NCBI RefSeq assembly: GCF_048403405.1
Contig: NZ_CP183137.1
DNA from: Escherichia coli
Lineage (GTDB): Bacteria > Pseudomonadota > Gammaproteobacteria > Enterobacterales > Enterobacteriaceae
Length of the DNA: 44,716 nt
Strand: one strand, 5' to 3'
Positions 6,001-9,000 of this stretch are shown here, in pieces (position 1 is the first letter of the stretch; the number at the start of each line of letters is the position of its first letter). The position numbers are program-made.

Positions 6001-9000
6001 CATTCTCAATAAAAAACATGGGTGACTCCTTTTTTCTTTTCCGGGCAGGGACGGTCATGCGATAACGTCATCCATCATCACTGCCCTTACCGTCACGCCG
6101 TCTGATAACATCATGCCGTTATCATCATCACCATGATAACAAGCATCCATATAACCACGCCGTTAAATTACCGGAGAGCCGTTTCCGTCAGATCCGACTT
6201 TCCGGAATATCACAACTTTCCGGAAGTGTACCACGCTGAGAAAATCATCATATCGCTGTTTTCCGCCCCTGCGCGGCGCATCACAGGTCAGGGAGATGAC
6301 ACAACATATAGTGTCATCAGCAGCTGAATTCAGCACTACATGTTGTGCTGACGGGAGATGGCGCTGTGCGGAGGGAGAGGAAGATCCGTAACCGCCGGAA
6401 ACCGGATCTGCACGGCGGGAAACGGGCAAATGATATGATAATTAAGCAACACACATAAAATCATATCAGATATGATTTTCATCGTTAAAAATTAAACAAT
6501 ATCTGATATTATCAGAAATCAGGAGCACACAAATCATGCAGGATATGATTTTTACCTGTCAGAACATTATCAGATGGAGCGTGCAGGATGGATCAGGAAA
6601 TGACGTTTTCACTCAGCTATGAACAACTGACCCGGTTTGCGGAAAAACGCATTCGGGAATGCAATCTGGACAGCCAGGGCGCGATTTATCTCTGCGAGTC
6701 AGCCAAAGCCGGAGCCGTGCTGATCTTCTGGCATGAACTGGCCATAAATGGCTATGCCTCAATGAATGCCATAAAGGGGTCAGTTTGGATATCGAAAATT
6801 ATTGGGCACTGTTGCAAAGTTAGCGATGAGGCAGCCTTTTGTCTTATTCAAAGGCCTTACATTTCAAAAACTCTGCTTACCAGGCGCATTTCGCCCAGGG
6901 GATCACCATAATAAAATGCTGAGGCCTGGCCTTTGCGTAGTGCACGCATCACCTCAATACCTTTGATGGTGGCGTAAGCCGTCTTCATGGATTTAAATCC
7001 CAGCGTGGCGTTGATTATCCGTTTCAGTTTGCCATGATCGCATTCAATCACGTTGTTCCGGTACTTAATCTGTCGGTGTTCAACGTCAGACGGGCACCGG
7101 CCTTCGCGTTTGAGCAGAGCAAGCGCGCGACCATAGGCGGGCGCTTTATCCGTGTTGATGAATCGTGGGATCTGCCACTTCTTCACGTTGTTGAGGATTT
7201 TACCCAGAAACCGGTATGCAGCTTTGCTGTTACGACGGGAGGAGAGATAAAAATCGACAGTGCGGCCCCGGCTGTCGACGGCCCGGTACAGATACGCCCA
7301 GCGGCCATTGACCTTCACGTAGGTTTCATCCATGTGCCACGGGCAAAGATCGGAAGGGTTACGCCAGTACCAGCGCAGCCGTTTTTCCATTTCAGGCGCA
7401 TAACGCTGAACCCAGCGGTAAATCGTGGAGTGATCGACATTCACTCCGCGTTCAGCCAGCATCTCCTGCAGCTCACGGTAACTGATGCCGTATTTGCAGT
7501 ACCAGCGTACGGCCCACAGAATGATGTCACGCTGAAAATGCCGGCCTTTGAATGGGTTCATGTGCAGCTCCATCAGCAAAAGGGGATGATAAGTTTATCA
7601 CCACCGACTATTTGCAACAGTGCCGAAAAAACTAAGCTAGGCTGGGGGGCAAGCTTTCAGCTAATGAGATACATGACTGAGCAACTGGATGAAAATGGCA
7701 GGGTTATCGGATTAATGAAGATATAAATGTGACAGGTCAGGTGAATCGTAGTGGTTGTTCAATGCCCCAAGGGCAGTCAGTTAATATGATTCTTCCTCCT
7801 GTCGGTGTGGCTCTGTTGAGAAAAAATGCCGGCCTGAAATTACCCGGCAACACCGGAAGGGCTGCGTTATCCGGCCTCAAGAGCGGGCTGAACAGGTGAG
7901 GGAACAGCTGAACGGCCACGACATAATCCACAACCCCGTTACCTGGACCACAAAACGGGAGAAACGGCGACGGAAACGCTGACACAGCGTGAGCTGGTCG
8001 CGAGGCTGAAACAGCACATCCCGGAGAAGTTTTTTAAGATGGTGAGGTACTTCGGGTTCCTTGCCAACCGGGTGTGTGGAGAAAAGCTGCCGCAGGTGTA
8101 CCGTGCTCTGGGGATGGATAAGCCGGAACCAGTGGCGAAAGTGTGCTATGCACAAATGGTGAAACAGTTCCTGAGTCGTGACCCGTTCGAATGCGTGCTG
8201 TGTGGCGGCCGGATGGTGTACCGCCGGGCCATTGCGGGGCTGAATGTATCAGGGCTGAAGAAAAACGCGCGGGATATCAGTCTGCTGAGGTATATCCCTG
8301 GGTGATGCAGGCTAAGTGCGCCTGCAATCCGGTAAAAGTATAAAAAACGGTCATTAACGGTATAAAAAACGACCGCAGGGGAAGCCCGAAAGCCCTGTTG
8401 TTCCGGAAACACGACTTACTGCACGTGGCATAAGGTGCGGACAACGGCGTTACTTAGTTTTTCAATTTCCTATACGTCAAGGAAACCAGTATGAAAAAAT
8501 CAATCGGTAATCTAAAATTAATGGCTAGCTGGGTTGTTGCTCTGCCGGTATTCGTTGGAGCTGGAGCTCACAGTGTATCTGTGCTCGCCCCAATATTTCT
8601 TCGTCATAATTCACAACTGACACCATACAGCCCCTTTATGGCCACTCTGGTGTTATTCCCCCTTCATTCAATAAAGGGCAATTACAGGTTTTTTGATACC
8701 ACACGCATGGGCATAGCGAGTCAGTGTATCGATGCTGGCTTTAGTGATGTTGTTTTCCAGGCGGGAAATAACCGGAGGTGTAACCCCCATGCGTTCAGCA
8801 ACCTGCGCTTTTGTCAGGTTGTCATGCTTACGCCATTCTGCAAGCAACGCCCTGAGCTTCTCCTTGCGTTCTTCTTCCTGCCATGCAGTACGATATTCCT
8901 CGTCCTTCATCCACTCGTTATGCAGTTCTTTATGGCTTACCAGTTTCATTAAGTACCTCCGCTAACCGCTTTCTGGCGAGATTGATTTCTTTTGCTGGCG

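Follow-up and report, generated by a model that had tools for sequence, protein, structure and literature searches.

The IS26 locus described here lies in a stretch of 44,716 nucleotides of Escherichia coli DNA, in the following called the window. The window corresponds to the reverse complement of positions 72813-117534 of NZ_CP183144.1, the circular plasmid pCREC774-3 (123,454 bp) of E. coli strain 774, which originates from human urine (Taiwan). Both sequences are 99.98% identical and differ by one substitution, four homopolymer run lengths and one 4-bp indel. The IS26 copy is located at positions 6805-7624 on the minus strand. It is 820 bp long and is terminated by perfect 14-bp repeats (GGCACTGTTGCAAA) at 6805-6818 (plus strand) and 7611-7624 (minus strand), which were found with 0 mismatches where 0.02 chance matches are expected. 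Its single gene is an intact transposase gene (tnp26, 6857-7561, minus strand, 705 bp or 234 amino acids), annotated in the RefSeq record of the same plasmid, at the equivalent position, as the intact IS26-family transposase WP_001067858.1. Length, terminal repeats and the single intact gene identify the element as IS26.

The first-pass annotation had described this IS26 as being flanked by non-matching 8-bp sequences, and this is the case. Positions 6797-6804 read AATTATTG and positions 7625-7632 read GAAAAAAC, so that no 8-bp target-site duplication of IS26 is present. An 8-bp duplication is a consequence of a resolved IS26 insertion and is not required for membership in IS26. Its absence is no anomaly but the norm in plasmids, as 0 of 70 IS26 copies were bracketed by a matched pair of duplications in the study of He et al. 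(2015) (PMC4471558). IS26 moves via cointegrates; when it transposes within one molecule in cis, the neighbouring DNA is deleted, and what remains is a single IS26 that lacks a duplication. Deletions and replicon fusions by IS26 without duplication are documented, as are inversions (PMC4471558).

It had also been proposed to reconstruct the underlying deletion or inversion from other IS26 copies and their flanks in the replicon. This search could be carried out on the whole 123-kb plasmid pCREC774-3, where the copy at 6805-7624 is the only IS26, so that no reconstruction is possible in this way. In the covered parts of the co-resident plasmids (152 of 154 kb of pCREC774-2, the first 50 kb of pCREC774-4 and 50 of 54.7 kb of pCREC774-6), three IS26 copies were identified, all of them on pCREC774-2. 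They differ from the IS26 of the window by 3 nt (99.6% identity), and their flanks match neither AATTATTG nor GAAAAAAC in either orientation.

To the left of IS26, the window contains an IncI1-type plasmid backbone with parM, parA, an integrase gene and hypothetical genes, which shows 96-99% identity to many IncI plasmids. The part at 4850-6775 (plus strand, integrase and hypothetical genes) is 96.3% identical to the IncI plasmid pSA20101045.1 up to position 6776. Here the backbone is broken within a hypothetical ORF of 258 bp (start at 6588), after 188 bp, and its last five base pairs, ATAAA (6771-6775), are a candidate for one half of a target site. Matches to the backbone that reach 6776 were obtained from at least 1,845 records of PLSDB and at least 1,353 of E. 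coli, none of which joins it to the IR sequence found next in the window. In pSA20101045.1, the only record in which the continuation was read directly, the backbone proceeds with GAGACAGG... / GAGACAGGAGCTC... The genes of this continuation (a hypothetical gene, DUF6404, colicin immunity, colicin, yagA and neighbours) are absent from the plasmid. Synteny with IncI plasmids is resumed only at about 40057-41023, and the lost backbone, including colicin, yagA and neighbours, amounts to about 6-8 kb.

Between the broken backbone and IS26 lie 29 bp (6776-6804, plus strand). They are an exact match to bp 1-29 of a 38-bp terminal inverted repeat (IR) of a Tn3-family transposon, which is complete at 35421-35458. 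Positions 6776-6804 and 35421-35449 are identical and both on the plus strand, a match for which 0 occurrences are expected from 100 shuffles. The earlier reading that the left neighbour of IS26 is the first 29 bp of this IR, in the same orientation as the copy at 35421, is thus confirmed, and the interpretation that IS26 has amputated a Tn3-family end is supported. No further DNA of the transposon was found near this remnant, which is called copy A in the following; the second copy is called copy B.

The DNA to the right of IS26 is of a different origin. Positions 7625-7937 (plus strand) represent the conserved sequence downstream of eltB, with 99.4% identity to pUMNK88_Ent and 91.7% to a plasmid of ETEC-2265. 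In the ETEC toxin plasmids (pUMNK88_Ent and the human ETEC plasmid) this homology begins 164 bp past the stop codon of eltB, exactly at the boundary of IS26. The heat-labile toxin genes eltAB themselves are absent from the entire plasmid. Since eltAB is missing and the homology starts at the very edge of IS26, the element occupies exactly the position of the heat-labile toxin operon. A diverged 3' fragment of an IS91-family element follows at 7936-8480 (plus strand), which is 88.5% identical to positions 39010-39553 of the window and is annotated as a partial transposase. The ETEC-type region joined by IS26 further contains toxin-antitoxin genes, IS fragments, fiu-ybiX, an S6 autotransporter protease gene and an F4/K88-like fimbrial operon. 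A block of 13.8 kb of this region is 97% identical in another IncI1/FII hybrid plasmid, NZ_CP141737.1, with different junctions. An inversion linking the two sequences that flank the toxin operon was considered and rejected, as positions 37837-38222, which occur upstream of eltA in ETEC plasmids, are the left end of an IS91-family element that is repeated there.

Copy B lies 28 kb from copy A, at 35421-37836 (plus strand). Its left flank (33055-35420, plus strand) carries a Pycsar effector and cyclase gene pair (33150-35059), followed by 283 bp (35138-35420) for which neither PLSDB nor the complete E. coli genomes gave a match and which end with TAAAT (35416-35420). The 38-bp IR at 35421-35458 is assigned to TnEc1, a known small element of the Tn3 family, and is identical over 38 of 38 positions to both IRs of complete TnEc1. 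The proposal to identify the transposon by its IR and TnpA therefore leads to TnEc1, as copy B comprises bp 1-2416 of this element with 99.05% identity to the TnEc1 of pMCR-11EC-P293. The tnpA gene of copy B lies on the minus strand with its stop at 35454. About 796 C-terminal codons of about 992 are left, about 196 N-terminal codons are missing, and the product is annotated as a TnEc1-family transposase without its N-terminus. The entire plasmid of 123 kb, the window included, contains neither tnpR nor the res site nor the second IR of copy B.

Copy B is followed directly by an IS91-family element of 1,718 bp (37837-39554, plus strand), which is 99.8% identical to a copy in pNCYU-25-82-6. The identity to TnEc1 ends at 37836 and not at 37843/37844, as the last seven bases matched by BLAST partly agree by chance with the first bases of the IS91-family element. 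Elements of the IS91 family transpose by a rolling-circle mechanism with an HUH transposase, use GAAC/CAAG as target and do not create terminal duplications. In agreement with this, the element is a discrete unit with an annotated IS91-family transposase of 402 amino acids, and the break in TnEc1 lies directly on the 5' side of a CAAG that belongs to TnEc1. In contrast to typical members of the family, the tetranucleotide at the joint is now GAAC, which borders both ends of the element, and not the CAAG of the target, and the last 351 bp of the element are tandemly repeated up to 39905. F-type repA, IS91 and the fae operon surround copy B on both sides and are arranged as in K88-type F plasmids, which indicates that copy B is embedded in imported DNA.

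Complete TnEc1, as present in pMCR-11EC-P293, has a length of 3,854 bp and consists of tnpA, tnpR and two 38-bp IRs, whose sequences differ neither from each other nor from the copy in the window. The IR has the form GGGGTCAG...ACGTTAAG (complete sequence GGGGTCAGTTTGGATATCGAAAATTATTGTACGTTAAG), and in full length it occurs only once in the window, at 35421-35458. The length of the target-site duplication was not defined from pMCR-11EC-P293, since the right flank of TnEc1 is CTGTCTCTTATACACA there, which we take to be the mosaic end of Tn5. In pRHBSTW-00313_2, a complete TnEc1 is bounded on both sides by the 5-bp duplication AATAA. The sequence of the tnpA end was identified in 100 of 5,426 complete E. 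coli genomes, at 109 places on 106 records, all of them plasmids. Only about 3 of these 106 records carry TnEc1 at two places, and strain AVS0947 has the element on four plasmids. In pCREC774-3, TnEc1 sequence is restricted to 6776-6804 and 35421-37836. The copies of the window share the 38-bp IR and tnpA (99% over 2,416 bp) with TnEc1. Each copy has kept the flank of one end only, ATAAA in case of copy A and TAAAT in case of copy B; these flanks are AT-rich like the target of the complete copy and may each be one half of a 5-bp duplication. In contrast to the complete element, both are remnants, one with 29 bp of the IR and the other with a piece of 2,416 bp.

The other half of the backbone site was found in nine pO55-type plasmids of the E. 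coli O55:H7 lineage (e.g., NC_017657.1 and NC_013942.1). In these plasmids, the IR of the tnpR end of TnEc1 is joined to TAAAGAGACAGG... / TAAAGAGACAGGAGCTC, which is the continuation of the same backbone ORF, within 1 bp and in an orientation that is compatible with the window. The right joint is kept in the pO55-type plasmids and the left joint in pCREC774-3. The pO55-type plasmids differ from the window in their left flank, which is the resolvase gene of another Tn3-family element, and the flanks of their TnEc1 do not match each other (TATCA / TAAAG). They also differ by an insertion of ISEc22 just inside the IR. This insertion makes their TnEc1 appear truncated at bp 30, seemingly in parallel to the cut by IS26; this parallel was rejected, as ISEc22 has an 8-bp duplication inside an intact IR.

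The two half-sites are offset by 1 nt, with ...CCATAAA|GGGG in the window and CCCC|TAAAG... in the pO55-type plasmids. A single shared 5-bp duplication TAAAG needs a run of five Gs from 6776 onwards, but the run in the window has four (6776-6779). Judged from these sequences, one insertion shared by both plasmid types would require a change of the run length from G5 to G4 or a miscall; otherwise the ORF would have been hit independently as a hot spot. A homopolymer miscall at 6776-6779 is possible, because the window differs from the RefSeq record in run length at four other homopolymers. If one event is shared, copy A would be the tnpA-proximal IR and hence the same end as the IR at 35421. 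The first-pass annotation had regarded the two as copies of the same end. The identity over 29 bp is exact; however, the IRs of TnEc1 are identical, and the remnant can therefore not be assigned to the tnpA or the tnpR end by its own sequence. The assignment to the tnpA end is suggested by the tnpR end of the pO55-type plasmids, which faces the other half of the backbone.

The same annotation had concluded from the shared orientation of both IRs that two copies of one Tn3-family transposon were once present, of which IS26 eroded one and the IS91-family element the other. With identical IRs, orientation is not a sufficient argument. The conclusion holds nevertheless, because the two IRs have different left neighbours, namely IncI1-type backbone with ATAAA at its end in case of the remnant and unrelated DNA with TAAAT at its end in case of the full IR. 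In addition, IS26 cointegration into the IR would leave TnEc1 from bp 22 onwards next to IS26, whereas copy B has bp 1-38 beside unique DNA.

Taken together, we consider the locus to be, with fair probability, a non-functional rearrangement scar on a mosaic plasmid that was assembled from two parents. Copy A was once inserted in the small ORF of the IncI1-type backbone, where only its outer 29 bp survive; it would have been resident in an I-type plasmid, as in the pO55 lineage. Copy B has a different insertion site, beside the Pycsar pair, in an ETEC/F-type virulence segment with which it would have arrived, and was truncated at CAAG by the IS91-family element. IS26 now connects the stump of copy A directly to DNA that in ETEC plasmids follows closely after the heat-labile toxin operon, and the rest of copy A, about 6-8 kb of backbone and eltAB have all been lost. 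Both joints of IS26 can be explained by its replicative transposition, either by formation of a cointegrate followed by loss or by a deletion of adjacent DNA in cis; either route would leave a single IS26 without duplication. Since both flanks of IS26 are novel joints, we infer at least one such event, and probably two. Mosaic assembly mediated by IS elements, and not a second insertion of TnEc1, would thus have brought both copies onto one replicon. The TnEc1 remnants are probably both unable to move, because they lack intact tnpA, tnpR and res and because both IRs point in the same direction; the IS91-family element and IS26 are potentially still active.

The result resembles the cases of He et al. 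(2015), in which a lone IS26 without 8-bp duplication stands between unrelated sequences and adjacent DNA, including part of a Tn3-family transposon, is lost. Such an outcome is described for intramolecular transposition in cis and also for unresolved or secondarily reduced cointegrates (PMC4471558). In contrast to those cases, there is no pair of plasmids from before and after the event here, so that the specific event cannot be traced, and the lost DNA consists of virulence and backbone genes (eltAB, colicin region) and not of resistance genes. The joints between backbone, IR and IS26, between IS26 and the sequence downstream of the toxin operon, and between the Pycsar flank and TnEc1 were found in this plasmid only, among all of PLSDB and the 5,426 complete E. 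coli genomes, and no intermediate was found there. The reciprocal joint, in which AATTATTG and the part of TnEc1 starting with bp 22 would follow IS26, does not occur in the 5,426 genomes. As these three joints are unique, the reciprocal joint is absent and the IS26 flanks on pCREC774-2 are unrelated, it can only be proposed which kinds of IS26 events took place and in which order.

The main alternative to this two-parent assembly, which we regard as unlikely, is a frozen fusion mediated by TnEc1 itself. An ETEC virulence plasmid with TnEc1 at the site TAAAT would have fused with an I-type plasmid, either by replicative transposition of TnEc1 into the latter or by recombination of two resident copies. 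Both routes would produce a cointegrate with direct copies, from which IS26 and the IS91-family element later removed both res/tnpR regions. This would account for the direct orientation of the IRs and for the first IR bounding the accessory region exactly at the backbone. The backbone moreover resumes 150-600 bp past the IS91-family element (40057-41023), as if a deletion by this element had extended from copy B into the backbone. Two copies of TnEc1 per record are rare, and the immunity of Tn3-family elements against a second simple insertion would also favor a fusion. However, the expected joint, the tnpR end of copy B followed by the backbone continuation (...AGACAGGAGCTC), is not present, and the DNA between the copies contains no replicon. 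The repA, IS91 and fae genes on both sides of copy B give it the appearance of imported DNA and not of a boundary between donor and target. Tn3-family resolvases normally resolve such cointegrates quickly. Assembly from two parents is preferred, as the fusion lacks its right-hand joint and is weakened by the F-type synteny. If the fusion were true, a cryptic Tn3-family element, and not IS26, would have delivered the virulence block.

In the simplest reading of the first-pass annotation, TnEc1 inserted twice and independently into one already assembled replicon, and each copy was truncated in place. The two sites differ and are both AT-rich (ATAAA and TAAAT), as is usual for targets of the Tn3 family, and the four plasmids with TnEc1 in strain AVS0947 show an active, spreading element. 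We nevertheless consider this course of events improbable. Target immunity, as described for the Tn3 family, makes a second insertion on one replicon unlikely (PMC4471558) and, if TnEc1 behaves in the same way, would normally block a second copy here. TnEc1 occurs at two places in only about 3 of 106 E. coli records. Two insertions also leave unexplained why the accessory region begins exactly at copy A.

An assembly artefact, with chimeric joins through IS and backbone repeats among several I-type plasmids of strain 774, is very unlikely. The plasmids pCREC774-2 and pCREC774-4 are deposited as linear, gapped sequences and have the I-type leading region and an identical IS91-family element in common with pCREC774-3, and the window deviates from the RefSeq record at homopolymer runs. 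However, pCREC774-3 is deposited as a closed circle, and its IS26 is only 820 bp long, has unique DNA on either side and is the sole copy in the plasmid. The 3-nt difference from the IS26 copies on pCREC774-2 makes a collapse or mis-join through those copies unlikely.

Least of all can the locus be derived from a single TnEc1 in which an inversion, e.g., an intramolecular IS26 event in trans, placed the two identical IRs in direct orientation: although the remnant sequence alone is compatible with a tnpR-end IR and IS26 inversions are well documented (PMC4471558), this origin is excluded by the flanks, as it predicts the reverse complement of the backbone continuation with TTTAT before 35421, where unrelated DNA with TAAAT is found, and it would leave two IS26 copies instead of the one present, while in the pO55-type plasmids it is the tnpR end that faces the other backbone half.

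The locus thus represents routine erosion of mobile elements by known elements (IS26, TnEc1 and the IS91-family element), and no new mechanism is involved. Its value lies mostly in annotation, as it locates the end of the I-type backbone and the start of the imported ETEC-type virulence region in pCREC774-3. The loss of the heat-labile toxin operon is placed exactly at IS26, and TnEc1 marks a recurrent insertion site that is common to the pO55 plasmids and pCREC774-3.

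Copy B of the Tn3-family transposon TnEc1 in pCREC774-3 is directly adjoined by a Pycsar anti-phage pair, consisting of an effector and a cyclase (window 33150-35059, plus strand; flank to 35420). The pair shows about 93% identity to counterparts found on only two to three other plasmids, and the 283 bp between the pair and the inverted repeat (IR) gave no match in PLSDB or in complete E. coli genomes. TnEc1 is cut by a 1,718-bp IS91-family element just 5' of CAAG; at the joint itself the tetranucleotide is GAAC, not CAAG. The element and a tandem repeat occupy 37837-39905, where the duplication covers the final 351 bp of the element. 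An element coding for both of the same proteins is also present in the co-resident IncI1 plasmid pCREC774-4.

In the pO55-type plasmids of E. coli O55:H7, the flanks of TnEc1 are mismatched (TATCA and TAAAG; NC_017657.1, 505-554 and 6788-6830), and a truncated resolvase from another Tn3-family element is located on the left. These two features suggest an earlier two-copy or recombination history at this locus, as in pCREC774-3. Just inside the IR, ISEc22 has inserted with an 8-bp duplication, GGTTGTTT. In pMCR-11EC-P293 (NZ_KX555451.1), TnEc1 lacks a 5-bp duplication in its flanks, and its right end is directly followed by TAATACTGTCTCTTATACACA (9855-9875). This sequence seems to resemble the Tn5 mosaic end or Nextera adapter. 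The right flank in this public record could thus have arisen artefactually, during assembly or in the laboratory.

Strain 774, a carbapenem-resistant urinary isolate and the host of this LT-less ETEC-type plasmid, contains several I-type plasmids (records NZ_CP183141.1 and NZ_CP183145.1 were inspected). The backbone ORF hit by TnEc1 copy A is uninterrupted in pCREC774-4. Another co-resident plasmid, pCREC774-2, has the appearance of a hybrid between IncA/C and IncI1, its boundaries marked by copies of IS26. The records of pCREC774-2 and pCREC774-4 were deposited as linear and gapped, and their assembly over shared repeats is therefore to be read with caution.

The replication initiator of pCREC774-3 is an IncFII-family RepA (41389-42261, minus strand) with about 85% nucleotide identity to the rep regions of K88 F plasmids, whereas IncI1 plasmids carry repZ at this position. 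The neighbouring NusG-like/traBC region (42300-44716) shows only 67-79% identity to IncI1. The backbone is thus itself mosaic, with some I-complex segments that are near-identical and others that are divergent.

The region 11652-30700 combines chromosome-type genes (fiu, ybiX and def, with fmt and ompW as fragments), an F4/K88-like fimbrial operon and an S6-family autotransporter protease of 1,369 aa, whose nucleotide identity to eatA reaches no more than about 67-71%. A 13.8-kb block of it is found with 97% identity in NZ_CP141737.1, which originates from a wound isolate from the USA. The right flank of IS26 (7625-7937) is conserved ETEC-plasmid sequence beginning 164 bp past eltB. This LT-downstream sequence is followed at 7936-8480 by a 3' fragment, diverged in sequence, from an element related to the IS91-family one that cuts TnEc1. 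The operon eltAB, encoding the heat-labile enterotoxin (LT), is absent from the whole plasmid pCREC774-3. IS26 occupies the exact place where eltAB would be expected; pCREC774-3 is an LT-negative virulence plasmid of the ETEC type.
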